This document shows, piece by piece, positions 11,158-64,000 of a stretch of 64,000 bases of DNA (its first letter is position 1; each line of letters opens with the position of its first letter). The notes under the pieces are model-generated. The model was not told the origin of the DNA and made no database searches. It worked only from the letters and a program-made list of their open reading frames with translations. The stretch is from a phage. Made by a program: the position numbers and the translations under genes. The stretch is taken from sequence record PZ212788.1. One strand, 5' to 3'.

Positions 11158-11186
11158 GCCCCGCTTCGGCGGGGTTTATTTTTATG
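11158..11186 (+). terminator. Rho-independent terminator
   Basis: GCCCCGC-TTCG-GCGGGG stem-loop followed by TTTATTTTTAT. Confidence 0.8.
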
Positions 11187-32107: not shown

Positions 32108-33085
32108 TTATTTAACGTGTTTGAAAATACCTGCCAACTCGGTCATTGTCATGCGGGTGGTCTTCATAAGATCTGTCATAGCTTTCTCCATAATTGGAGA
32201 TACTACCATAAAGTTTCCTTTAGTGAAACCTTTATTCCAGTCGGTCACCAACAGTGGTTTAAGTCCAGCTCCGAGACGTTCACCAGTTAAAGCACAGCAT
32301 TTGCGAATATACGAACTCTTAAATTGGCTGAACGACAGATCAACTTTCATACCTGCATCGTAGAACGTTTGACAATAGAAAGTGTAAGCCTTAGCAATCT
32401 CAACATCATCAGGCAGTGCAGGAACTTCTTCTGTAATATCCTCTTCGACCTCCTGAGGATCTTTTTCCTCTTCAGAGTTCTGTTCTTCAATTTCTTCTGT
32501 CACAGTCTCGTTTACGATGTCTGAAATGTGTTTGTTGGCTGCACGATCAGCCATGAAATTTTTAAAGTCCTGCATTGGTGACATATCTTCCTCCTCTTCG
32601 TCAAATAGTGCTAGTTTATCTTCTTCTGTCCCGTATTGCAAGATGAAATCTTCAAAAGTATAATCACCTTTCAATTTCTCCATACGCTCTTCGCTCAGGT
32701 GGAGCATCATCTGCTGGACAATTTTTCGATCAGTTTTATCTTTTATCAAGATTGCAGTCTTTTTATCTACCAGACAGTCCTTCAGAGCGTTGCACCTCAA
32801 TCCCACCACACAACAATTATCAATTGAGTAAGGACCTTCATCATCTATCCGCTCCAGAGATGGATAGAAAGGATTTCCCAGCCCGTTTTCATCTGTGTGC
32901 ATGTCAAAAGGTATAAGGGTGTAATCGCACACTCCATCTCCTAAAAGTTTTTTACCAAATAGGAGGTATTCTTCCCATGACAGGTTGAACTCTATATCCC
33001 GTTTCCGTGCATTATTCTGTTTGCGTCTATATTTTTTGAGCAGGCGCTCTAACTCTTCTGGTGTATAATATTTTTCAAGATTCAT
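32108..33085 (-). CDS. HNH-like (His-Me finger) protein with acidic linker
   Basis: ATG 33085 with RBS AAGAGA preferred over TTG 33151; motif CDYTLIPFDMHTDENGLGNPFYPSLERIDDEGPYSIDNCCVVGLRCNALK; acidic EEEEDM and EEQNSEEEKDPQEVEED stretch. Confidence 0.45.
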   Translation of the reverse strand: MNLEKYYTPEELERLLKKYRRKQNNARKRDIEFNLSWEEYLLFGKKLLGDGVCDYTLIPFDMHTDENGLGNPFYPSLERIDDEGPYSIDNCCVVGLRCNALKDCLVDKKTAILIKDKTDRKIVQQMMLHLSEERMEKLKGDYTFEDFILQYGTEEDKLALFDEEEEDMSPMQDFKNFMADRAANKHISDIVNETVTEEIEEQNSEEEKDPQEVEEDITEEVPALPDDVEIAKAYTFYCQTFYDAGMKVDLSFSQFKSSYIRKCCALTGERLGAGLKPLLVTDWNKGFTKGNFMVVSPIMEKAMTDLMKTTRMTMTELAGIFKHVK

Positions 33086-33116
33086 GAGTTGTCTCTTGTG
33101 CTCTGTAGGTGAAGAA

Positions 33117-33145
33117 ATCTTATCAAGTGCCTCAACAGATGTCAA
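33117..33145 (-). promoter_or_regulatory. Sigma70-type promoter for minus-strand block
   Basis: On minus strand: -35 TTGACA, 17-nt spacer, -10 TAAGAT, about 30 nt upstream of ATG 33085. Confidence 0.6.
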
Positions 33146-33158
33146 CCTCAAAAACGTG

Positions 33159-42416: not shown

Positions 42417-42754
42417 GTTTGTGGAGAAATATCGTTAACTACGTGTGCGGCAATCCAACTCCTGAAGAGAAGGATGTTGTGATTCACGATTTTACTAAAA
42501 GATCTCGTGAAAAAGATCTACTGCTAACAAAGGTGACTGATAAAGATCCTGCAGTAGGGGACTGGGCAGGTTTTGCGTTTACATCGGACAAATACACCTT
42601 TAACAAAGGTGACTACCTTGTTGTGGATTTTAACGAAGACATTGAGGGTGCTGAACCTTACTATCAAACCCTTATTGTTGCAGGGTGTGTTGATCTCTCT
42701 GCAGGCATGCACAGTTTGATTCTTTTTGAGCTTGACTCTGAAGACCTTGAGTAG
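42413..42754 (+). CDS. Hypothetical protein (113 aa)
   Basis: Overlapping start ATGA; RBS GAGGGGGA. Confidence 0.45.
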   Translation: MSLWRNIVNYVCGNPTPEEKDVVIHDFTKRSREKDLLLTKVTDKDPAVGDWAGFAFTSDKYTFNKGDYLVVDFNEDIEGAEPYYQTLIVAGCVDLSAGMHSLILFELDSEDLE

Positions 42755-42770
42755 TAAGATGTGAGTATAA
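42742..42770 (+). promoter_or_regulatory. Sigma70-type promoter
   Basis: -35 TTGACT, 17-nt spacer, -10 TAAGAT, spanning the stop of the upstream gene. Confidence 0.5.
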
Positions 42771-42781
42771 AGGGGAGGCAC

Positions 42782-42799
42782 TCCTCCCCACAAAAACTA
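42782..42799 (+). promoter_or_regulatory. 5'-proximal mRNA stem-loop
   Basis: GGGGAGG-CACT-CCTCCCC with no U-tract, about 5 nt downstream of the predicted start site. Confidence 0.45.
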
Positions 42800-42814: not shown

Positions 42815-43117
42815 ATGAAACGTTATAAACCATACACTTTTGAAATCGATTTCGAACTTGACGATATGTTTACTGTGGAAGCTCAGGCAGTTGTCCAGTT
42901 GCCAGACTCGGAGTGCCGTGACTCTGATGTTGACTATTACGGGTTTAGACAAATTACCGATGTGCGTGTTTACCACAACGGTGAAGAGGTGGACTTCCAC
43001 CAACTGCCAAACGATATGCGCCACTCAATTTACAAACGTGCAGCCCGTGAACTAGAGTCCTATCTGGATGCAGCGACGACAGCAGCTGCATTTGCTGAAG
43101 AAGTGGGAGGTTTCTGA
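42815..43117 (+). CDS. Hypothetical protein (100 aa)
   Basis: RBS AAGGAAG. Confidence 0.45.
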   Translation: MKRYKPYTFEIDFELDDMFTVEAQAVVQLPDSECRDSDVDYYGFRQITDVRVYHNGEEVDFHQLPNDMRHSIYKRAARELESYLDAATTAAAFAEEVGGF

Positions 43118-43524: not shown

Positions 43525-44007
43525 ATGTCAGATTTTATGTGGAAAGTTGGTTATTCCTCCCCTGAAATGTGTAAGGCCTGTTTTGTGAAAATAGGTCGCG
43601 AGGATATCGACAAAGTGATTCTTAAGTTTCGTGATGTGGCTGTAATCGGCAACCGAGTGCTTAAGCACTTAAAGAATCTGAAGCTCACCAAAAAGAAGTT
43701 CTTTGGACTTTTCGAAGAGAAGGTTGATGCTTGGACCCATTGCATTCAGGAAGCTAAATCTCACTACAGTGCTATCATTACCCCAGAACGGGTAGCCAAG
43801 ATGGAAGGATTCATCAACAGCACAGAGTTTGAGTGCCTGAAAGCTGCACTTGATAGTTATCCGAAATGCCTCAAGCACTTGGACAAGTATGTAGAAAAGG
43901 ATGGGGAAATGTACCTAACCCTGGACGCATATTATGAGATGCAAGAAATTTTAAATTTAGATTTGACATTGGTATCCACCGAGTATACAATAGGTATCCA
44001 GGTTTAA
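43525..44007 (+). CDS. Hypothetical protein (160 aa)
   Basis: RBS AAGGAGAAGG. Confidence 0.45.
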   Translation: MSDFMWKVGYSSPEMCKACFVKIGREDIDKVILKFRDVAVIGNRVLKHLKNLKLTKKKFFGLFEEKVDAWTHCIQEAKSHYSAIITPERVAKMEGFINSTEFECLKAALDSYPKCLKHLDKYVEKDGEMYLTLDAYYEMQEILNLDLTLVSTEYTIGIQV

Positions 44008-44013
44008 CACTAG

Positions 44014-44041
44014 GCCCTGCCCGAAAGGGTGGGGCTTTTTG
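44014..44041 (+). terminator. Rho-independent terminator
   Basis: GCCCTGCCC-GAAA-GGGTGGGGC stem-loop followed by TTTTTG; same hairpin recurs at 55519. Confidence 0.75.
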
Positions 44042-51217: not shown

Positions 51218-51589
51218 ATGTTAGTAAAAGGTACCCACACAGTCAAACAACGTATTGAAGTTGAGATTGATGATTGTGAGCTGAAGCATATTTTACGGTC
51301 ATGCTCCAACGTTTTGCTCCTTAGTATTCTTCAGGAGCGAGCGGAGAACGAGTTCTTAAATGCATTGGCAGGCCGTCCCGGTGACTTCTGTGTGCGTAAG
51401 CGTGGTGACAACAAGTCGTGGTTGTGGGAGATCGATGCCGACTGGGATTACCACAAAAATGAGGGTATAGATGAGCCTATTCGTGAACTGACGGACAAAG
51501 AGATTCAGATGTACAATGAAGTTTGTCATTGGGCAACACGCCAACAAATTTACCTAGACCCTGTGTGGCTGATTGAAAATAGTCGTTGA
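51218..51589 (+). CDS. Hypothetical early protein (123 aa)
   Basis: ATG 51218 with RBS GAGGAGG preferred over ORF-track start 51191. Confidence 0.45.
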   Translation: MLVKGTHTVKQRIEVEIDDCELKHILRSCSNVLLLSILQERAENEFLNALAGRPGDFCVRKRGDNKSWLWEIDADWDYHKNEGIDEPIRELTDKEIQMYNEVCHWATRQQIYLDPVWLIENSR

Positions 51590-51614
51590 CAAGAAGTAAG
51601 GTTAGATGTAAGAT
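51586..51614 (+). promoter_or_regulatory. Sigma70-type promoter
   Basis: -35 TTGACA, 17-nt spacer, -10 TAAGAT; upstream AAAATAGTCG shared with promoters at 60208 and 63497. Confidence 0.6.
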
Positions 51615-51923: not shown

Positions 51924-51952
51924 TTGACAACAGCGATAGGACCTAATACAAT
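51924..51952 (+). promoter_or_regulatory. Sigma70-type promoter
   Basis: -35 TTGACA, 17-nt spacer, -10 TACAAT. Confidence 0.6.
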
Positions 51953-51983
51953 GGTCCTATCAAAACGAAAGGGGACCACAGCA

Positions 51984-59045: not shown

Positions 59046-59074
59046 TACTTGAAAATTCCTGGCATATCAAGTAT
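59046..59074. repeat. Inverted repeat at the start of the noncoding region
   Basis: ATACTTGA ... TCAAGTAT arms separated by 13 nt, immediately after the last small gene. Confidence 0.4.
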
Positions 59075-59086
59075 AAGGGGGATTTC

Positions 59087-59181
59087 TAAAATGGATTTCC
59101 TCCTTTTGATATTTCACCGGGCTGGATATTTTAAAATTCTTAGAAAATCAGAAAATGGATCGAAAACTAAAATGGATTTTT
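59087..59181. repeat. Cluster of three AAAATGGAT(T/C) motif copies
   Basis: TAAAATGGATTT at 59087, GAAAATGGATCG at 59151, TAAAATGGATTTTT at 59168; a fourth copy at 59521. Confidence 0.5.
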
Positions 59182-59355
59182 CAGAGTAGGCGCGACAAGC
59201 TGAATAACTCATCCTATCGTTTGCACCATATTCCAGGCCACCATTATAGATTTCCCACACATGCTAACCTCTCTCTACTAGAACTTCCTCCACTTACCCT
59301 TGACCTTCTATGGTAACAATCTAACCGCTATCTTGAAGTTGCGGTGCAGCTTTCC

Positions 59356-59535
59356 AGGTACTCGATCTACTTTTCATTTCAGGGCTTGGATTTTCTGAAA
59401 ATTTTTCTCGATAAATTTCTCAGTACTCGATCTGTTTTTCGTTTTCTGAATCGGATTTTCTGGAAATCGTTCCGGCTCTCAACCTGAAATTTTTGGGGAC
59501 GAAATCGATTTTTCGTTTTCAGAAATGGATTTTTA
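59356..59535. repeat. Imperfect tandem direct repeats, about 65-bp period
   Basis: AGGTACTCGATCTACTTTTCATTTC (59356) versus CAGTACTCGATCTGTTTTTCGTTTTC (59421); GGATTTTCTGAAAAT (59388) versus GGATTTTCTGGAAAT (59453); partial third unit 59491-59513. Confidence 0.6.
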
Positions 59536-59649
59536 AAATTTCTATATGGGAATATTTTAGTGGATACTATTTTATAGTAAATTGTTACGGAGGGTAATTA
59601 GCGTGCTAATTAAATTTATTAAATGCGAGGAGTTCTCATTTAGAATTTT

Positions 59650-59666
59650 GAATGATAATCATTCTC
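59650..59666. promoter_or_regulatory. Fur-box-like motif, copy 1
   Basis: GAATGATAATCATTCTC matches the 3' two-thirds of the Fur consensus GATAATGATAATCATTATC at most positions. Confidence 0.3.
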
Positions 59667-59780
59667 GTTTGCAGAATAACGGGCAGGCCCGGTGATTGTC
59701 TCCCGGCCCCTGTTGCCCCGGCTTGTTATTATAGTATCACACAGGACAAAGAAAGCAAGGATTTTTTGCATAAATTTTTA

Positions 59781-59802
59781 AATGATAATGATAACCGTTC
59801 TC
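59781..59802. promoter_or_regulatory. Fur-box-like motif, copy 2
   Basis: AATGATAATGATAACCGTTCTC contains GATAATGATAACCGTTCTC, about 16 of 19 matches to the Fur consensus. Confidence 0.3.
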
Positions 59803-60207
59803 ATTTTATGCAGCGCCCATCCCCAGTGGTTGTCTCCCCCGTCACCGGTGCCTGCCGTCCTTTCGATAGGTATATTGTGCCACCTGGCGGGGCCGCTGTC
59901 AACACCTTTCAAAAAAAAAAAATTATAACCAGGTGCGCCCACTGCCAGGACCTGGCGGGGGAGAGTGAAAGCTTGCAAACCTGGTAGGGCTATGCTATAG
60001 GGTAGGCAACAACTGGAGAGGAGGTACAAAAATGAAAGGTAATATAATCCCCTGGAAAATGTAGCGACTAATGACGCTGAGGCTATCGCCATGGTTGAAA
60101 AGGCTATGGCGGGAGCGTTGGAACATAAAGAAGAGTACGAAAAAATGGTGGTTAACCTGGCGGGGGCGGCAGGTGGATTCTATCATAAAAATAATTTAAA
60201 ATAGTCG

Positions 60208-60235
60208 TTGACAACAAGGTTAATCATGGTATTAT
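60208..60235 (+). promoter_or_regulatory. Sigma70-type promoter
   Basis: -35 TTGACA, 16-nt spacer, -10 TATTAT; preceded by AAAATAGTCG. Confidence 0.6.
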
Positions 60236-60285
60236 TACCCTACAAGGTGAACAACACCGCACTAACCAGTAAAGAGGATAAATTT

Positions 60286-60483
60286 ATGAACGCATACGGG
60301 ATCAAAGTACGTCGCAACACTCGCCAGGTGGTCACCAATCAAGTGATTTGCCGGGTGGATGTAACCATCAACAACGGGCAAGGCCTTTATAAATTTCGTC
60401 GCGGTCATAGCTATACCCTGCAACAGCTTAATCGTTGCGCCCTGACAAAAGGTCAGATCAACCACTGGTTTAATAAAAAATAA
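60286..60483 (+). CDS. Small basic protein (65 aa)
   Basis: ATG 60286 with RBS AAGAGGA preferred over ORF-track 60208, which coincides with the -35 hexamer. Confidence 0.45.
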   Translation: MNAYGIKVRRNTRQVVTNQVICRVDVTINNGQGLYKFRRGHSYTLQQLNRCALTKGQINHWFNKK

Positions 60484-60486
60484 GTA

Positions 60487-60515
60487 TTGACATACAGTCA
60501 GACACCAAATACACT
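60487..60515 (+). promoter_or_regulatory. Sigma70-type promoter
   Basis: -35 TTGACA, 17-nt spacer, -10 TACACT. Confidence 0.6.
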
Positions 60516-60547
60516 AAAAGCACAAAAGACACTAAGAGGATAAAATC

Positions 60548-60946
60548 ATGAAAACCACTACCTTTAATTTTGATAATGCAGACTTTTCTTTTTCTGATGT
60601 CAAGAACTGCCGCCGTGATCGTGGATTTTACAAGGCTTATAATCTGGTGGGCCTGGACGATGACAATAATTTGCACGAAGTAGCTGAGATCCGGTATTAT
60701 GCCGCCGCCAGCGGGAACACTTACTACTGCGTTTTTTGGATACACGACAACAAGAACAACAAGTACGGCTATACTGGCGGCAAGGCGAGCGGTCACGGTT
60801 ATGATAAAGCTAACGCAGCACTTGAGAGCGCATTAAATGCTATGGGGATCACTGCCGACGGCTGGATCTACGAAGAAGAGTTTTTGTCGGCACTTGCTGA
60901 CCACCTAGGCTATAAAAAGCACATTGTAACATGCGCCCACGAATAA
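60548..60946 (+). CDS. Hypothetical early protein (132 aa)
   Basis: RBS AAGAGGA; Gly/Tyr-rich YGYTGGKASGHGYDKANAALESAL; family not recognised. Confidence 0.5.
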   Translation: MKTTTFNFDNADFSFSDVKNCRRDRGFYKAYNLVGLDDDNNLHEVAEIRYYAAASGNTYYCVFWIHDNKNNKYGYTGGKASGHGYDKANAALESALNAMGITADGWIYEEEFLSALADHLGYKKHIVTCAHE

Positions 60947-60952
60947 AAATCA

Positions 60953-60980
60953 TTGACACGCTGCAAAATTTAAGTAAACT
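60953..60980 (+). promoter_or_regulatory. Sigma70-type promoter
   Basis: -35 TTGACA, 16-nt spacer, -10 TAAACT. Confidence 0.55.
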
Positions 60981-60990
60981 AGACACAAAA

Positions 60991-61009
60991 GGCGGGAATG
61001 TTTCCCGCC
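60991..61009 (+). promoter_or_regulatory. 5'-terminal mRNA stem-loop
   Basis: GGCGGGAA-TGT-TTCCCGCC, about 5-10 nt after the predicted start site, no U-tract; same arms as the hairpin at 63535. Confidence 0.5.
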
Positions 61010-61028
61010 AGCACAAAGGAAAAAGATC

Positions 61029-61424
61029 ATGAATAAGAACGTACGCCGCATCATGAACGAACTGGCAAACGATGAAAAAATTATTGACATGCATTTAGTC
61101 AACATTTGCCGCCGTTGTGTAACATATAACAACCGCGCCGCAAAAGCGCGTGAGATGAACGCAAAAGGCACCTTAAAGCCCTTTCAGGTGGTTGTAAAAT
61201 CTATAACCAGTGCAGCAGGCCAGGCGCATGACCACAACAACGGGAGCACTAATATTGATCCGTCTTACGTAATGAAACGGATCCGGACTTGCAAGAATAA
61301 AGAGCAGGTGTATAATGTCATAGACTGGTTGGATTCTATGGGCGATGTGGTTTACAATAGGTTTTCTGCAGCTATCGAGATCCAGCTTGACAGGTTGGAC
61401 GGTAAAGTACTGAAAACTTACTAA
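61029..61424 (+). CDS. Hypothetical early protein (131 aa)
   Basis: RBS AAAGGAAAAAG. Confidence 0.5.
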   Translation: MNKNVRRIMNELANDEKIIDMHLVNICRRCVTYNNRAAKAREMNAKGTLKPFQVVVKSITSAAGQAHDHNNGSTNIDPSYVMKRIRTCKNKEQVYNVIDWLDSMGDVVYNRFSAAIEIQLDRLDGKVLKTY

Positions 61425-61435
61425 GATTATTTTTA

Positions 61436-61472
61436 GATGGCCTTGACTTCAGGGCCATCAATAAAGTAAACT
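61436..61472 (+). promoter_or_regulatory. Repeated palindrome-promoter element, copy 1
   Basis: GATGGCC-TTGACTTCAG-GGCCATC inverted repeat bracketing the -35 TTGACT, then -10-like TAAACT; 45-bp core is near-identical to the element at 62067. Confidence 0.55.
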
Positions 61473-61504
61473 AATCCCAGTTAAGCGAAAAAGGAGGCTT
61501 GAAG

Positions 61505-61624
61505 ATGAGCACTACACGCCAACACGCAAAGGTAACGATTATCGTTTGCATCATTGGTTACATTCTGGCGCAAATGTTGATGGGTAGCGCCAATGATTTC
61601 GCAAAATTTTTCTTAGACTTTTAA
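61505..61624 (+). CDS. Small hydrophobic peptide (39 aa), below ORF-track cut-off
   Basis: RBS AAGGAGG 6 nt upstream of ATG; predicted single transmembrane helix VTIIVCIIGYILAQMLMG. Confidence 0.35.
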   Translation: MSTTRQHAKVTIIVCIIGYILAQMLMGSANDFAKFFLDF

Positions 61625-61652
61625 TTGACAAGATAACTTAAATCAGTATAAT
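61625..61652 (+). promoter_or_regulatory. Sigma70-type promoter, consensus
   Basis: -35 TTGACA, 16-nt spacer, -10 TATAAT. Confidence 0.7.
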
Positions 61653-61666
61653 ACTAAGCACATAAA

Positions 61667-61682
61667 CGGGAAAACTTCCCAG
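61667..61682 (+). promoter_or_regulatory. 5'-terminal mRNA stem-loop
   Basis: CGGGAA-AAC-TTCCCAG, the same AAC loop and GGGAA/TTCCC arms as the 63535 hairpin. Confidence 0.4.
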
Positions 61683-61704
61683 AACACCAAAAGGAGAAAA
61701 CATT

Positions 61705-62055
61705 ATGAATACTTCCATCACTATGACCGCCGAAGAAAAAGCCCTGCAGATCGCCGCTCTGAAAAAACAGATCGCAGACCTTGAGAATAAGATCGACAAT
61801 TTTGAAATCGACGAAGACAAGTACGACGATAAATATGATGAATGGTTAGACGAGATCTACGGCGAAATCATGATCGGAAACATTTCTTTTCTTCCGTCGC
61901 GTATCCTCAAGGAGCTAGATCCTATCGCTTACCGCTGCGGATTTAGCGACTACATCGACAGCCTGGATATTGAGGACGATGAAGAATACCAGGAATTACA
62001 GACAGAGTTAGAAGAAGCAAAAGAAGAGCTTGCGGAGCTGGAAGAAAACGAGTAA
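61705..62055 (+). CDS. Highly acidic coiled-coil protein (116 aa)
   Basis: RBS AAGGAGA; acidic runs EIDEDKYDDKYDEWLDE and DIEDDEEYQELQTELEEAKEELAELEENE. Confidence 0.5.
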   Translation: MNTSITMTAEEKALQIAALKKQIADLENKIDNFEIDEDKYDDKYDEWLDEIYGEIMIGNISFLPSRILKELDPIAYRCGFSDYIDSLDIEDDEEYQELQTELEEAKEELAELEENE

Positions 62056-62066
62056 GCTTATTTTTA

Positions 62067-62103
62067 GATGGCCTTGACACCAGGGCCATCAATAAAGTAA
62101 ACT
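62067..62103 (+). promoter_or_regulatory. Repeated palindrome-promoter element, copy 2
   Basis: GATGGCC-TTGACACCAG-GGCCATC inverted repeat bracketing the -35 TTGACA, then TAAACT. Confidence 0.55.
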
Positions 62104-62144
62104 TTATACTGTTAACACTGAACTAATGCATAGGAGTTAAAACC

Positions 62145-62390
62145 ATGGCAGCACTAATCACCAAATATTATGCCCCTACCAACACCAAAAGCGCCCGTAT
62201 CATGGTAAAAGGCTTCGGACGTAAAAAGGTGTACACCTGGGATTATGCCTTAGACACGGAAGACAACTACACCAACGCAATGACCGATTTTATTAATGAA
62301 CTAAATAAGCAGATCTTGACAAGTTATAAAGTGACCGATATTGCTTATATAGGTGAAGGCGGGATCTGTTTTGTAGGCATTGTGAAATAG
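62145..62390 (+). CDS. Hypothetical early protein (81 aa)
   Basis: RBS AGGAG. Confidence 0.45.
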   Translation: MAALITKYYAPTNTKSARIMVKGFGRKKVYTWDYALDTEDNYTNAMTDFINELNKQILTSYKVTDIAYIGEGGICFVGIVK

Positions 62391-62400
62391 TTATTTTTTC

Positions 62401-62440
62401 GGTGGTCCTGGTTGCAGGGCCATCTATAAAGATAATTTAT
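62401..62440 (+). promoter_or_regulatory. Degenerate third copy of the palindrome-promoter element
   Basis: GGTGGTCC-TGGTTGCAG-GGCCATC followed by TATAAAGATAAT; same arm and -35 layout but diverged. Confidence 0.35.
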
Positions 62441-62464
62441 TAACACCATGAAAGGAGAAAGTAC

Positions 62465-62818
62465 ATGATCAGCGGGGCAAGTTTTATTATTGGCGCTATT
62501 GCTACGGCTTTAATTGTAAATAAGATCCAGGATAAAAAGGAAAGAGGAAGTACCGCCCTTGCAGAATATCCATTTTGGGCATTCAACGATAACGAAGATT
62601 ATATTATAAAGTATAAAAATAAAGAAGGTGACCAAGTAACACCGCGACCGATCCCGGCTTACAAAATGCAGGAAACACTATACCGCCTGGAGGCGGGAGG
62701 CGCAAAAATTGTAGACTTTTGGGGATACGACCACACAGATCAGGAAGTTATAAAGCGCCGTATCCGGGCTATTCAGGCCAATATTGAAGTTAGCAAGGGG
62801 GGAATATATGAAAATTAA
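62465..62818 (+). CDS. Membrane protein with N-terminal transmembrane helix (117 aa)
   Basis: RBS AAAGGAGA; hydrophobic SGASFIIGAIATALIV. Confidence 0.45.
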   Translation: MISGASFIIGAIATALIVNKIQDKKERGSTALAEYPFWAFNDNEDYIIKYKNKEGDQVTPRPIPAYKMQETLYRLEAGGAKIVDFWGYDHTDQEVIKRRIRAIQANIEVSKGGIYEN

Positions 62819-63005
62819 TTTCGAGAAAATTGTAAAGCGCCCTCATGATTCCGAAGAGCTGCCAGAACGCCGCCAGCGTAACAATAAACTGAATAAGCCA
62901 AAAAGGTTTGGGAAGATCTGGCGTAATCATTATGATCGTAAATTGCCCGGCCTACTTTTGGAACGTGAACGACAGGCAGAACGATACCGCCATAAAGACA
63001 AATAA
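62808..63005 (+). CDS. Small basic protein (65 aa)
   Basis: ATG 62808 with RBS GGGGGAA; Arg/Lys-rich PERRQRNNKLNKPKRFGKIWRNHYDRK. Confidence 0.4.
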   Translation: MKINFEKIVKRPHDSEELPERRQRNNKLNKPKRFGKIWRNHYDRKLPGLLLERERQAERYRHKDK

Positions 63006-63013
63006 CAACCAAC

Positions 63014-63043
63014 GCCCCGCCATTGTGCGGGGCTTTTTATTTC
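63014..63043 (+). terminator. Rho-independent terminator
   Basis: GCCCCGC-ATTGT-GCGGGGC stem-loop followed by TTTTTATTTCT. Confidence 0.8.
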
Positions 63044-63186
63044 TATCCTACGAATAGCGCCCCTGGTTGGCCCCACAAACGCCACAAAAGCCCCTACCTA
63101 TGCAATCCCCTTTCTTGACCTGAAAACAACGTCTAGGGCCGTTTTATGGCGTTAAAAATATTATTGACAGTGATTTTATTCAAAGC

Positions 63187-63215
63187 TTGACACCTTGGAA
63201 TAGTCCGGATATACT
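63187..63215 (+). promoter_or_regulatory. Sigma70-type promoter, second TTGACA 23 nt upstream
   Basis: -35 TTGACA, 17-nt spacer, -10 TATACT; another TTGACA at 63164. Confidence 0.65.
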
Positions 63216-63246
63216 AACCACATCAAAGCAAGAAGGAGTAAACGCC

Positions 63247-63507
63247 ATGCGTAAATTAAAAAATTTTGATAAAGTAGATGTTGTCCTGAATAATTTTTAC
63301 TACTGCAATAATAAAGCCGTTTGGTGGCGTGATAGTTCCACCGATAAAGTTAAAGCGCGCTTTCTCCAAGGGCACTGGCAAGGCCGCCCAGTGATTAAAA
63401 TCTTAGGGCAATTGGTAGCGTTTAAAAATTGCCACCGTGTTGACGACTTTGAAGATATTTTGAACATTTTACGCCACAATAATTTAAAAAATAGTGTTGA
63501 CAAGTAA
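63247..63507 (+). CDS. Hypothetical early protein (86 aa)
   Basis: ATG 63247 with RBS AAGGAG preferred over ORF-track 63187, which coincides with the -35 hexamer. Confidence 0.45.
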   Translation: MRKLKNFDKVDVVLNNFYYCNNKAVWWRDSSTDKVKARFLQGHWQGRPVIKILGQLVAFKNCHRVDDFEDILNILRHNNLKNSVDK

Positions 63508-63524
63508 GCCTCAATAAGTATACT
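63497..63524 (+). promoter_or_regulatory. Sigma70-type promoter
   Basis: -35 TTGACA overlapping the upstream stop, 16-nt spacer, -10 TATACT; preceded by AAAATAGTG. Confidence 0.65.
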
Positions 63525-63534
63525 TAAACACACA

Positions 63535-63553
63535 GGCGGGAAAACTTCCCGCC
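63535..63553 (+). promoter_or_regulatory. 5'-terminal mRNA stem-loop
   Basis: GGCGGGAA-AAC-TTCCCGCC; same 8-bp arms as the hairpin at 60991. Confidence 0.5.
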
Positions 63554-63581
63554 ACTAACAAAGAAAATAGGAGAAAATATC

Positions 63582-64000
63582 ATGACCACCGTTAACATTA
63601 CTACAGGTTACAATTTATCTTTCGACGTGCTGACCGACGAACAAAAAGAAAAAGCCGTTGAAATGGTCCGCGAAAGAGAAGAACACAGCGGGGATAATTT
63701 TTTTGCAGAAAGTGTAATTGAATACTATAAAGAATATGTTTTTCCAGAGTATGGCCTTGAAGATACCGAAGTACATTGGTCAGGCTTTTGGTGCCAGGGT
63801 GACGGCGCGTCAATCAGTGCGGAAAACGTGGATTTAGAAAAATTCTTGCGTAAAGTAAAGGCCCTGACCAAGTTCCGATCAATTCGTCACTTGTTCGGCA
63901 CAATGCACGATGGCGAGCTATCCGCAAGTGTTGAGCGTGATCCATATAGCCGCTATAGTCACGAAAACACTGTAAGCGGGTACATCGATACTACATGGCT
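63582..64000 (+). CDS. Hypothetical early protein, N-terminal 139 codons (3' end outside window)
   Basis: RBS AGGAGAAAA; no stop to window edge; motif VHWSGFWCQGDGASIS, family not recognised. Confidence 0.45.
   Translation, partial: MTTVNITTGYNLSFDVLTDEQKEKAVEMVREREEHSGDNFFAESVIEYYKEYVFPEYGLEDTEVHWSGFWCQGDGASISAENVDLEKFLRKVKALTKFRSIRHLFGTMHDGELSASVERDPYSRYSHENTVSGYIDTTW

Follow-up and report, generated by a model that had tools for sequence, protein, structure and literature searches.

Emory, Bouvet and Belasco reportedly described, in 1992, 5'-terminal stabiliser hairpins of E. coli mRNAs, among them hp1 of the ompA 5' UTR and papA (cited in PMC3997798). The leader stem-loop of T7 phi10 is a further comparison. 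In T4-type phages, stem-loops occur in promoter-early stem-loop (PeSL) cassettes (Arbiol et al. 2010, PMC2839356; Comeau et al. 2014, PMC4122927), whose authors interpret them as intercistronic punctuation. Rak2-like jumbo phages carry RpoD-like early promoters with UP-like elements, as described in the CBB paper (PMC5259590).

The window analysed here is the whole 64,000-nt stretch of phage DNA (PZ212788.1), and the region under study belongs to the early block, rich in ORFans, of an rV5-like coliphage (Vequintavirus). The block is built of repeated regulatory modules, with tiny genes as plug-in cassettes. The module opens with an A-rich UP-like tract (AAAATAGT..) and a near-consensus sigma-70 promoter. 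About 10-12 nt further on comes a G-run/C-run stem-loop, then a leader that is A-rich and unstructured, and finally an SD and the small gene. The family is best read as a variant of the T4-type PeSL cassettes in which the stem-loop has shifted from the promoter interior to the 5' leader. The comparison set comprised phage naswa (the closest relative), four related contigs of viral origin and 121Q, an unrelated jumbo phage. The features of the region were as follows.

60198..60235, + strand: cassette 1 promoter, UP-like tract AAAATAGTCG and TTGACA-16-TATTAT at 60208 (11/12, TG-extended), leader without a hairpin, fold z -0.4
60286..60483, + strand: small gene, 65 aa, PHROG 7119, SD GAGGA at 60274
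60487..60515, + strand: cassette 2 promoter TTGACA-17-TACACT (10/12), leader unstructured
60548..60946, + strand: small gene, 132 aa, PHROG 7028
60953..60980, + strand: cassette 3 promoter TTGACA-16-TAAACT (10/12)
60991..61009, + strand: leader hairpin GGCGGGAA.tgt.TTCCCGCC, 10 nt after the -10 (~+5), dG -14.6, z -3.4, no T-tract
61029..61424, + strand: small gene, 131 aa, PHROG 13245, SD AAGGA at 61016
61422..61472, + strand: D1 repeat copy 1, T-rich tract, hairpin GATGGCC[TTGACTTCAG]GGCCATC with the -35 in its loop, -10 TAAACT
61505..61624, + strand: very small gene, 39 aa, hydrophobic, missing in L006/L009
61625..61652, + strand: cassette 5 promoter TTGACA-16-TATAAT (12/12)
61668..61680, + strand: weak leader hairpin GGGAA.aac.TTCCC, 15 nt after the -10, dG ~ -5.5, z -1.2
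61705..62055, + strand: small gene, 116 aa, acidic, coiled-coil, PHROG 9294, missing in L006/L009
62053..62103, + strand: D1 copy 2, 94% identical to copy 1, hairpin 62067-62090 around the -35, TTGACA-18-TAAACT at 62074 (10/12)
62145..62390, + strand: small gene, 81 aa, PHROG 3199
62387..62437, + strand: D1 copy 3 (69%), -35 lost, directly after a stop codon
62465..63005, + strand: two overlapping small genes, 117 aa and 65 aa
63014..63041, + strand: canonical intrinsic terminator GCCCCGC.cattgt.GCGGGGC, then TTTTTATT
63164..63215, + strand: orphan TTGACA (63164-63169), then promoter TTGACA-17-TATACT at 63187 (11/12)
63247..63507, + strand: small gene, 86 aa, PHROG 11241
63487..63524, + strand: cassette 10 promoter, AAAAATAGTG tract and TTGACA-16-TATACT at 63497 (11/12), overlapping the 3' end of the upstream gene
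63535..63553, + strand: leader hairpin GGCGGGAA.aac.TTCCCGCC, 10 nt after the -10 (~+5), dG -14.6, z -3.6
63582..64000, + strand: first part of a 207-aa gene cut by the window's end, PHROG 5162

The 8-kb region held 38 promoter-like sites, compared to 17.3 ± 3.7 in shuffles. An earlier sequence-only reading of this DNA had placed a near-consensus promoter before each small gene. Both promoters it cited, at 61625 and 63187, exist, and a promoter was present ahead of eight of the block's ten genes; the exceptions were gene 62465, preceded by a decayed module, and gene 62808, which overlaps its upstream gene. The upstream tract that several promoters had been said to share was recovered as AAATAGT-N0-3-TTGACA, found three times (51577, 60199 and 63489) with 0 expected. 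The palindrome GGGAA-N2-8-TTCCC was likewise found three times, against 0.5 expected. In the rV5 record annotation, the 61625 promoter appears as P192. The second gene of the overlapping pair (62808-63005) matched Pfam Phage_1_1 (T7 gene 1.1), and homologues of the 207-aa gene were found in the jumbo phages 121Q and RaK2, which have the same modules.

Three further promoters, one of them with a leader hairpin, lie outside the region.

42732..42789, + strand: outlying module, TTGACT-17-TAAGAT (9/12), 11 nt, hairpin, SD and ATG at 42815
42772-42789, + strand: hairpin GGGGAGG.cact.CCTCCCC of this module, dG -15.8, z -3.1
51576..51614, + strand: third upstream-tract copy, AAAATAGTCG and TTGACA-17-TAAGAT, without a hairpin
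51924..51961, + strand: promoter TTGACA-17-TACAAT (11/12) with its -10 in the loop of hairpin GATAGGACC...GGTCCTATC (51935-51961), z -6.9

All four leader hairpins cited previously exist, although the one placed at 42782 spans 42772-42789 and was 10 nt off. They begin 10, 15, 10 and 11 nt past the -10 hexamer (60991, 61668, 63535 and 42772, respectively), which corresponds to ~+3 to +6 (or +10) of the predicted transcript. Since the stem-loop lies 3' of any plausible start site, it is part of the cassette's own transcript and is the first structured element of that mRNA. We estimated the coupling from independent catalogues of promoter-like sites and hairpins, with local flanking bins as the control. 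The window alone was marginal, with three hairpins in the +8..+15 bin compared to 0.5-0.8 expected (P 0.01-0.05); the coupling is significant because of the continuation of the block and the relatives. For the window and naswa together, seven hairpins started 8-15 nt after the -10, against ~0.5 per bin (P 1e-6 to 6e-5), and the same bin held 6 in L010, 11 in L011 and 12 in L012 (P 1e-9 to 1e-10). In 121Q, this bin held 13 hairpin starts and every other bin 0-1. No peak after the -10 was seen in the minus-strand position scan. Among 42 unique modules, the gap was 9 nt in three, 10 in 11, 11 in 13, 12 in nine and 13-15 in six, and the spacing was highly regular over 50-odd modules from two phage lineages. 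The suggestion that a hairpin sits just past the predicted start was thus confirmed by the 9-12 nt peak in the relatives and 121Q, and only marginally by the window. Chance overlap of promoter-like and hairpin-like sequence in short AT-rich IGRs would fit that marginal excess, as well as the one cited hairpin (61668) that folds no better than shuffles. However, the pattern was replicated at five further loci with the flanking-bin control (P 1e-5 to 1e-10), and the hairpins are conserved in relatives. We regard chance as extremely improbable, and the position peaks in the window, relatives and 121Q effectively refute it.

The leader hairpin is not an intrinsic terminator. In the 8-nt stretch that follows the stem there are 0-3 T (0-1 for the four cited hairpins, whose lack of a U-tract had been noted correctly), compared to 5-7 T for the genuine terminators at 11159, 26351, 37315 and 63014. 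In two naswa IGRs (7912 and 11682), a T-tract terminator lies 5' of a promoter and a hairpin 3' of the same promoter. A terminator 5 nt past the start would, moreover, abort the cassette's own transcript. The annotation of phage Alma labels hairpins 60991 and 63535 "terminator"; we rejected a Rho-independent terminator here, as there is no + strand U-tract and the hairpin sits past the next promoter's start.

Folding supported three of the four cited hairpins: those at 60991, 63535 and 42772 were strong (dG -14.6 to -15.8, z ~ -3.1 to -3.6, SD unpaired), the one at 61668 was weak, and leaders without a hairpin had z ~0. The 14 nt 3' of the stem are 52% A, and the 63535 hairpin is followed by ACTAACAAAGAAAATAGGAG. 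The stem is kept, whereas the loop is free to vary. Between orthologous modules of naswa and L010, 3-5 of 76 stem positions differed, compared to 10 of 23 in loops and 44 of 282 in leader plus ITR (stem versus loop, P 1e-4 to 1e-5; loop above leader, P 0.002). In L005/L010, the 60991 loop is flipped from TGT to ACA with the stem unchanged, the 63535 counterpart is GGTGGGAA with a G.U pair, and the 61668 hairpin, which begins 12 nt after the -10 in naswa, is cut to 4 bp. Pairing-preserving changes included a paired G+C insertion (GGGGCAA to GGGGGCAA, TTGCCCC to TTGCCCCC) and a C-to-T substitution yielding G.U. The leader hairpins match no Rfam family.

A second hairpin class is formed by D1, a 51-nt repeat in three copies (61422, 62053 and 62387) with its hairpin around the -35. 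Copy 1 folds into a composite 17-bp hairpin (dG -19.6 on the + strand versus -13.6 on the - strand) and copy 3 into a 19-bp composite held by G.U pairs (-21.4 versus -8.1). Judged by these strand differences, the D1 hairpin is a + strand, RNA-level structure that could act only on read-through RNA. The 51935-51961 hairpin belongs to the PeSL subclass "stem-loop over the -10". Because D1 and 51935-51961 lie upstream of their own promoter's start, a 5' cap role is impossible for them, and any one function for all hairpins must therefore act on read-through RNA. The D1 class, the -10 hairpin and the kinship with PeSL were not part of the sequence-only reading.

The repeated modules are sites where relatives gained, lost and swapped single genes. 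In L006/L009, two genes were deleted by a D1 x D1 event, with copy 1 at the left end and copy 2 at the right. A 537-bp insertion in L005/L010, a three-ORF cassette, has TTGACA at its bounds, and the orphan TTGACA at 63164-63169 is its junction. Crossover sites mapped to aaaatagtTTGACAaca, post-hairpin CCattaatgagggta, actaatca..aaagagg and the inside of one hairpin (event f). Gene order was shuffled in L011/L012. As breakpoints fall inside modules, identical arms recur largely because modules duplicate and recombine. This qualifies the earlier proposal of a designed 5'-end structure that had been drawn from recurrent arms; geometry, the missing U-tract and stem conservation speak for it, and the best reading of the leader hairpin is a selected 5'-leader structure.

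By capping the early mRNA at its 5' end, the hairpin would slow 5'-end-dependent decay, which involves RppH and the RNase E 5' sensor; it might also be a 3' barrier for read-through RNA of the upstream cassette. We infer mobile cassettes of early genes in which a transcribed 5' hairpin most likely shields mRNA from 5'-end-dependent decay, a reading to which we give roughly even confidence. Points against it are that, of ~14 strong promoters in the window, only four have the hairpin, the one at 61668 being weak, and that the strand-asymmetry test of the leader hairpins was neutral as to an RNA-level role. With +1 set 7 nt after the -10, 3-6 unpaired 5' nt are predicted, a borderline overhang for classical 5'-hairpin protection, which according to the 1992 work of Emory, Bouvet and Belasco is said to need at most ~2-4. 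No mapped transcription start sites were found for any vequintavirus in the literature searched. The constant -10 spacing could in part reflect shared descent of duplicated modules instead of selection, and template-switch "correction" of DNA palindromes can be a source of perfect stems with fast-changing or flipped loops. RNase E cleaves an accessible 5'-P end >10-fold faster than a base-paired one (PMC3997798), is a major factor in T4 early mRNA decay (PMC3014915) and is stimulated by Srd of T4 (PMC4980113). Protection would matter especially if this phage, like T4, stimulates RNase E via an Srd-like protein. The window's homologue of rV5 gp11 had weak Srd and sigma-70-decoy PHROG matches and an HNH endonuclease as its best PHROG match, and the link to Srd is weak.

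Among the alternatives, we find it unlikely, but worth serious weight, that all hairpins act on read-through RNA as attenuators, non-canonical terminators or, after processing, 3' exonuclease barriers, insulating the expression of each small gene, with the site past the next promoter incidental or inherited. An RB49/phi1 PeSL stem-loop placed between promoter and lacZ cut expression about as much as rrnB T1 (PMC2839356). D1 is a + strand RNA hairpin (-19.6 to -21.4 versus -8.1 to -14.9 kcal/mol) located immediately past stop codons and 5' of the start site of its own promoter, and copy 3 kept the hairpin while losing the promoter. As most IGRs lack a further terminator, the hairpin will be included in read-through RNA, and one function for three hairpin positions is more parsimonious. 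Yet the leader hairpins lack the U-tracts of the block's real terminators, occur in two naswa IGRs together with a canonical terminator placed 5' of the promoter and, if terminators, would also abort their own transcript at ~+25. A barrier or terminator would, furthermore, be free to sit anywhere in the IGR, but 36 of 42 hairpins begin 9-12 nt past the -10, and in 121Q no hairpin is placed otherwise.

It is improbable that the palindromes are recognition sites for a protein of phage or host origin. Such a protein could bind them as DNA, at operators centred near +14 (like lacO), and so silence early promoters, or as RNA, in the role of a translational repressor or processing factor. This idea, raised by the sequence-only reading, gains from arms that recur often (GGCGGCA.atgg, GGCGGGAA(A).tgg and GGGGAGAA.tag), a GAA-loop-TTC apex common to many modules and an identical GCGGGAA.tag.TTCCCGC in Vequintavirus-like L011 and the unrelated 121Q; the position overlaps the zone where repressors block RNA polymerase, and early promoters of such phages need some shut-off. 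It is weakened by 18 distinct 5' arms and 21 loops, arms ranging from 5 to 9 bp, loops that evolve fastest, zero Rfam matches and strong promoters of the same block without a hairpin, and module duplication and recombination explain the recurrence of arms. Equally improbable is a hairpin without its own function, hitch-hiking in a recombinogenic, self-propagating regulatory repeat, where the palindrome promotes or marks recombination, is kept perfect by template-switch repair, and selection favours mobile cassettes and does not act on RNA. Breakpoints inside modules (one within a hairpin), PeSL mini-circle crossovers mapped to stem-loop loops, and the loop flip and excess loop divergence as signatures of DNA-level palindrome dynamics would suit this, as would the neutral strand-asymmetry test of the leader hairpins (G.T 7 versus A.C 4; mean MFE -12.67 versus -12.58). 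However, crossovers lie mostly in the UP/-35 tract or leader, a hairpin-less module recombines equally well (the TTGACA-bounded insertion), exact -10 spacing is kept while neighbouring sequence diverges, and D1 pairing is G.U-dependent and + strand-specific.

Compared to known systems, the leader hairpins resemble Rho-independent terminators in their G/C-rich 7-8 bp stem, 3-4 nt loop and intergenic position, and differ in lacking the + strand U-tract (5-7 T of 8 in true terminators of the block). With the Rak2-like phages they share clustered consensus sigma-70 promoters and a UP-like tract before short hypothetical early ORFs; the CBB account ends at the promoter and does not mention the downstream hairpin or modular recombination (PMC5259590). 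Like ompA, papA and phi10, the modules have a sequence-independent stem-loop near the 5' end, then an unstructured leader and strong SD, and the expected effect is to shield the mRNA against RppH and the 5' sensor of RNase E. Here, however, the module is repeated and mobile, serves a dozen or more genes per genome and has a borderline overhang of 3-6 nt from predicted 5' ends. The likeness to PeSL begins with the consensus sigma-70 early promoter and the A/T-rich tract upstream of it (AAAAAGTTG-TTGACA in RB49, AAAATAGTCG-TTGACA here) and extends through the G-run/C-run stem-loop and a C/A-rich leader to the SD and the ATG that opens a small ORFan. In both systems, the modules are densely arrayed in a variable region, close relatives differ by indels and gene swaps whose breakpoints fall in repeated modules, and minor classes carry the stem-loop across the -35 (D1 here) or the -10 (51935 here). 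The hosts of the cassettes differ, being Vequintavirinae and the jumbo Asteriusvirus 121Q, not Straboviridae, and the leader hairpins here have no U-tract. In the same scan, RB49, the type PeSL phage, had zero hairpins downstream of the promoter and 11 inside it, at -24 or -16, whereas the dominant stem-loop here lies 9-12 nt past the -10, inside the transcript.

The window belongs to a Vequintavirus (rV5-like myophage), and its 60000-64000 part was 97.5% identical to naswa, the closest relative, and 93% identical to rV5. The cassette block is a long plus-strand array of small genes, which encode 39-207 aa and are labelled hypothetical in every record. PHROG matches for 10 downstream products were all of unknown function, save for one product with a Pfam Phage_1_1 match. 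This 65-aa product (62808-63005) matched the T7 early gene 1.1 family (E 2.6e-11); its gene overlaps the 3' end of the preceding gene and lacks a dedicated promoter. For rV5, 33 sigma-70-type promoters and 20 terminators were predicted from sequence alone (PMC3606486), and four of these promoters are annotated in this region in the rV5 GenBank record. Seventeen GenBank records (MG0656xx) named 'Campylobacter phage', with C. jejuni as host, shared 93-94% identity with the rV5-like E. coli sequence studied here, and their host assignment looks doubtful.

On its upstream side, the array adjoins about 1 kb without credible ORFs (59046-60030), the counterpart of which is a 'non-coding' box on the rV5 map (PMC3606486). 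Three diverged direct repeats of 47-57 nt (59348-59533) lie in this region, together with five of the eight GGATTTTY motifs of the window and several G/C-rich imperfect palindromes (e.g., 59680-59720 and 59850-59960). Candidate roles are those of an origin, of a region for packaging or regulation, or of a non-coding RNA.

The near-consensus promoters cited by the sequence-only reading exist; those at 60208, 60487, 60953, 61625, 62074, 63187, and 63497 match 10-12 of 12 consensus positions. Eight of 10 genes had one, so the claim of a promoter before each gene was slightly overstated. The tract AAAATAGT said to be shared upstream of the -35 hexamer was recovered as well: AAATAGT followed after 0-3 nt by TTGACA occurred three times against zero expected. 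All of the cited hairpins exist, namely GGCGGGAA/TTCCCGCC at 60991 and 63535, GGGAA/TTCCC at 61668, and GGGGAGG/CCTCCCC, although the last lies at 42772-42789 and not at 42782. The gap from the -10 hexamer to the hairpin was 10 (60991), 15 (61668), 10 (63535), and 11 nt (42772). The reported lack of a U-tract held, with 0-1 T in the 8 nt beyond the stems at 60991, 63535, and 42772. Three of the cited hairpins folded far better than shuffled sequences (z -3.1 to -3.6), but the one at 61668 did not (z -1.2). Stable stem-loops next to promoters, these and others, had dG values of -14 to -21 and z of -3 to -6. In the window alone, promoter-hairpin coupling was of marginal significance only (three observed versus 0.5-0.8 expected). 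An odd promoter-then-terminator order was seen at 43963-44030: ORF 43525-44007 contains an 11/12 promoter-like site within its end, and a terminator-like hairpin with a T-tract, GCCCTGCCC.gaaa.GGGTGGGGC TTTTT, comes next, shortly ahead of the gene at 44029.

Positional regularity was assessed by cataloguing promoter-like sites and perfect hairpins independently and profiling hairpin starts from the end of the -10 hexamer. For sites with at least 10 of 12 matches in the window and its naswa continuation, seven hairpin starts fell in the +8 to +15 bin versus about 0.5 per flanking bin; the same profiling of the minus strand gave no peak. About 12 of the 19 early promoters in the naswa intergenic-region table had a G-first hairpin at about +3 to +7, and each such hairpin precedes an A/C-rich leader and then the Shine-Dalgarno sequence (SD). 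The same positioning was seen in four IMG/VR contigs, and the more divergent contigs L011 and L012 had 11 and 12 units of this type over 12-17 kb (P ~1e-9 to 1e-10). Among 42 unique modules (promoter, stem-loop, A-rich leader, SD, small gene), the gap was 9-12 nt in 36; there were 18 distinct 5' arms (5-9 bp) and 21 loops, and the 14 nt beyond the stem were 52% A. Salmonella phage PVP-SE1, which belongs to a different genus (Seunavirus) of the subfamily, had only 2-3 modules and no significant peak, and the feature is thus not general to the subfamily. Searches of IMG/VR with single small proteins returned 2-4 loci only, and an exact-pattern scan for a promoter plus GCGGGAA hairpin returned six contigs, all about as large as rV5-like genomes. 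A different regulatory module lies upstream of the naswa_146 homologue in each of naswa (L004 9503-9565), L011 (9923), and L012 (9924). Of the three, GGGGCC.gaaaa.GGCCCC lacks a recognisable promoter, and its loop is the same as the lambda boxB loop.

Jumbo phages have homologues, at 43-60%, of the gene that follows hairpin 63535. In 121Q (Asteriusvirus), the 50 kb around this homologue contained 13 hairpins 10-16 nt after strong promoters, with essentially none elsewhere. The 121Q module, carried at 137000-153000 of NC_025447, consists of aaaatagtTTGACA, ..acatcaa, GGGGAGAA.tag.TTCTCCCC or GCGGGAA.tag.TTCCCGC, and then actaacagagag; the arm GCGGGAA.tag.TTCCCGC is identical to one in L011. Examples of the module were also present in RaK2. 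RpoD-like promoters with UP-like elements have been described before short early ORFs of the jumbo group, with no mention of a hairpin (PMC5259590). The occurrence of modules in these unrelated phages suggests that regulatory cassettes have spread horizontally or that a constraint is shared.

The sequence-only reading recognized a single hairpin class, and the D1 repeat was absent from its account. D1 (51 nt; 61422-61472, 62053-62103, and 62387-62437) forms a 17-19-bp composite hairpin with the -35 hexamer in its loop (z -4.8 to -6.1). The D1 hairpins are RNA-level in nature: they are G.U-dependent and reach -19.6 to -21.4 kcal/mol on the plus strand versus -8.1 to -14.9 on the minus strand. 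In the third copy, the promoter is gone and the hairpin is retained directly 3' of a stop codon. At 51924-51961, an 11/12 promoter has its -10 hexamer in the loop of a perfect 9-bp hairpin (51935-51961, z -6.9). The D1 and 51935 hairpins lie 5' of their own starts, and could therefore act only on read-through RNA or on DNA.

Recombination between close relatives occurred at the modules. Contigs L006 and L009 lack two genes through a crossover between D1 copies. L009 further lacks naswa_148 and naswa_149, with crossovers in aaaatagtTTGACAaca and in the post-hairpin CCattaatgagggta, respectively. L010 also lacks naswa_148, here with the junction falling within the hairpin, and a leader crossover removed naswa_155. 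A TTGACA-bounded insertion of 537 bp with three small ORFs is present in L005 (5120-5670, IMGVR_UViG_3300010279_000001) and L010; the orphan TTGACA at 63164-63169, 17 nt 5' of the 63187 promoter, is the junction or scar of this cassette. Gene order was shuffled in L011 and L012. Deletion event b was an ordinary microhomology event.

Divergence of the module elements was measured by comparing naswa with L010 (about 85% identity) over seven orthologous modules.

Differences between naswa and L010 by module element (differing positions/positions compared).
-35 hexamer: 0/42
-10 hexamer: 3/42
Spacer: 12/113
-10 hexamer to stem: 9/62
Stem: 5/76 (3/76 once an alignment slip is removed)
Loop: 10/23
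Leader: 35/220

Pairing is conserved in the leader hairpins, the stem-loops 3' of the -10 hexamer. Stems diverged less than loops (P 1e-4 to 1e-5), and the stem changes include a C-to-T change that makes a G.U pair and a paired G+C insertion; in one hairpin, the loop flipped from TGT to ACA. No consensus structure emerged when 44 paralogous modules were aligned with MAFFT, blind to structure, and passed to RNAalifold; column-based covariation is unusable for these modules because stems of variable length fall out of register. Loops also diverged faster than leaders (P 0.002), a pattern that template-switch dynamics of DNA palindromes would yield too, so that an RNA-level function of the leader hairpins is something we infer. 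Comparisons of the two strands of the leader hairpins were neutral: G.T versus A.C extensions numbered 7 to 4, and plus- versus minus-strand minimum free energy gave P 0.93. The 'G-first' property is unusable as a strand marker because a perfect palindrome is identical on both strands.

The leader hairpins do not have the features of Rho-independent terminators: the G/C hairpin is present but the U-tract is absent. Of the 8 nt that follow the stem, 5-7 are T in genuine terminators of this genome (e.g., 63014-63041), compared with 0-3 for leader hairpins, and naswa intergenic regions 7912 and 11682 have a T-tract terminator 5' of the promoter and a T-less hairpin 3' of it. Judged from sequence, the missing U-tract argues against intrinsic termination, as does position, since a terminator a few nucleotides past the start would abort the mRNA of its own cassette. 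A terminator scan listed hairpins 60991, 63535, and 42772 on the minus strand only; minus-strand terminators were rejected, with T content beyond the stem on that strand varying from site to site. The record of phage Alma labels hairpins 60991 and 63535 'terminator', and such mislabelling of leader hairpins by pipelines distorts predicted operon structures. Antitermination hairpins of the lambda nut/boxB or put type, considered for the GAAAA-like loops, were rejected because hairpins occur at at least 12 promoters per genome with many different sequences. A single conserved palindrome, as expected of an operator for one sequence-specific dimeric regulator, is not seen among the 18 arms of 5-9 bp; a few arm types nonetheless recur across lineages. 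Among Rfam 15 covariance models, the sole match was isrJ (E 0.96), at terminator 62974-63036.

The sequence-only reading took the hairpins to be a designed 5'-end structure, perhaps for mRNA stabilization or as a recognition site; its observation was confirmed and generalized, and its interpretation is supported in part. The leader hairpin would form the 5'-terminal structure of each early mRNA and may slow 5'-end-dependent decay. In the leader hairpins pairing is kept and sequence is free (18 arms, 21 loops), as in an ompA-type stabilizer, a hairpin that prolongs mRNA half-life in a manner dependent on RNase E and RppH. In the work of Emory, Bouvet and Belasco (1992), such a stem-loop reportedly has to be separated from the 5' end by at most about 2-4 unpaired nt. 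The predicted overhang here is 3-6 nt if transcription starts 7 nt after the -10 hexamer (gaps 9-12 nt), which is borderline for protection; a literature search found no TSS or RNA-seq study of any vequintavirus. The main rival is that all hairpins, the leader class included, punctuate read-through transcripts. These roles are compatible: placed at +5, a hairpin would cap the 5' end of its own mRNA as well as the 3' end of the upstream mRNA.

Base pairing of the 5' end lowers RNase E activity more than 10-fold (PMC3997798). In T4, the enzyme is one of the main determinants of early mRNA decay (PMC3014915) and is stimulated by Srd (PMC4980113). The rV5 paper names gp11 a probable Srd homologue (PMC3606486), and the literature also refers to it as an anti-sigma factor. 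The best PHROG of the gp11 homologue in the window (32108-33151, minus strand) was HNH endonuclease (2.6e-110), followed by decoy of host sigma70 (3.5e-13) and Srd anti-sigma factor (3.8e-9); its annotation as Srd looks uncertain, and a link from Srd to the leader hairpins is weakly supported. A bolder and, taken as a whole, unlikely proposal is that the promoter/5'-hairpin/A-rich-leader unit is an 'early-mRNA mark' that virulent coliphages with large genomes share horizontally (the rV5-like and 121Q-like ones and, in part, RaK2- and PVP-SE1-like ones), the hairpin letting early phage transcripts evade a decay that the phage turns on against host mRNAs, for example by RNase E stimulated by an Srd-like protein, or being read by a conserved host or phage factor. 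If true, mRNA 5' ends would serve for self/non-self discrimination, and the mobile cassette bearing the mark would also drive ORFan shuffling. Should the hairpin set early-mRNA lifetime, it would explain a short, intense burst from dozens of tiny host-takeover genes during host mRNA destruction, and its promoter, 5' cap hairpin, and leader could serve synthetic biology as compact, portable parts.

The closest known system is the promoter-early stem-loop (PeSL) cassette of T4-type phages, in which a consensus sigma-70 early promoter with A/T-rich upstream sequence, a G-run/C-run stem-loop, and the SD and ATG of an ORFan are combined; the stem-loop occurs in five positional subclasses, mostly between -35 and -10 or over -10, and PeSLs cluster in hyperplastic regions where recombination between elements yields indels and mini-circles (PMC2839356; PMC4122927). 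A lacZ assay identified the PeSL stem-loop as a transcription terminator or attenuator, and mini-circles were detected by inverse PCR (PMC2839356). As in PeSLs, promoters here match 10-12 of 12 positions and follow an A/T-rich tract upstream of -35, a stable G-run/C-run stem-loop (GGCGGGAA/TTCCCGCC, GGGGAGG/CCTCCCC, and others) adjoins the promoter, and SD, ATG, and small ORFan close the unit. The modules likewise cluster in a variable region, and their recombination gives gene indels and replacements between close relatives. D1 (over -35) and 51935 (over -10), minor classes here, match PeSL subclasses, whereas the dominant class here begins 9-12 nt past -10, inside the predicted transcript. 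The same scan of the RB49 hyperplastic region found 11 hairpins at -24 (in the spacer) or -16/-13 (over -10) and none downstream; RB49 is similar to the present modules in its upstream tract, AAAAAGTTG-TTGACA, and in its C/A-rich leader. Unlike PeSL carriers, the phages here are not T4-like (Vequintavirus, plus modules in Asteriusvirus 121Q), and a literature search found no description of PeSL-like elements in phages other than T4-like ones. Elements of this kind are already known, but the pervasive presence of the feature in these phages seems undescribed. It is best filed as a PeSL-type mobile regulatory cassette of another subfamily and a jumbo lineage, with the stem-loop relocated to the 5' leader. 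PeSL-type modular shuffling thereby reaches past T4-like phages into Vequintavirinae and a lineage of jumbo phages, and provides a concrete mechanism by which ORFan, anti-defence-type genes turn over rapidly in phages now used for therapy and biocontrol.
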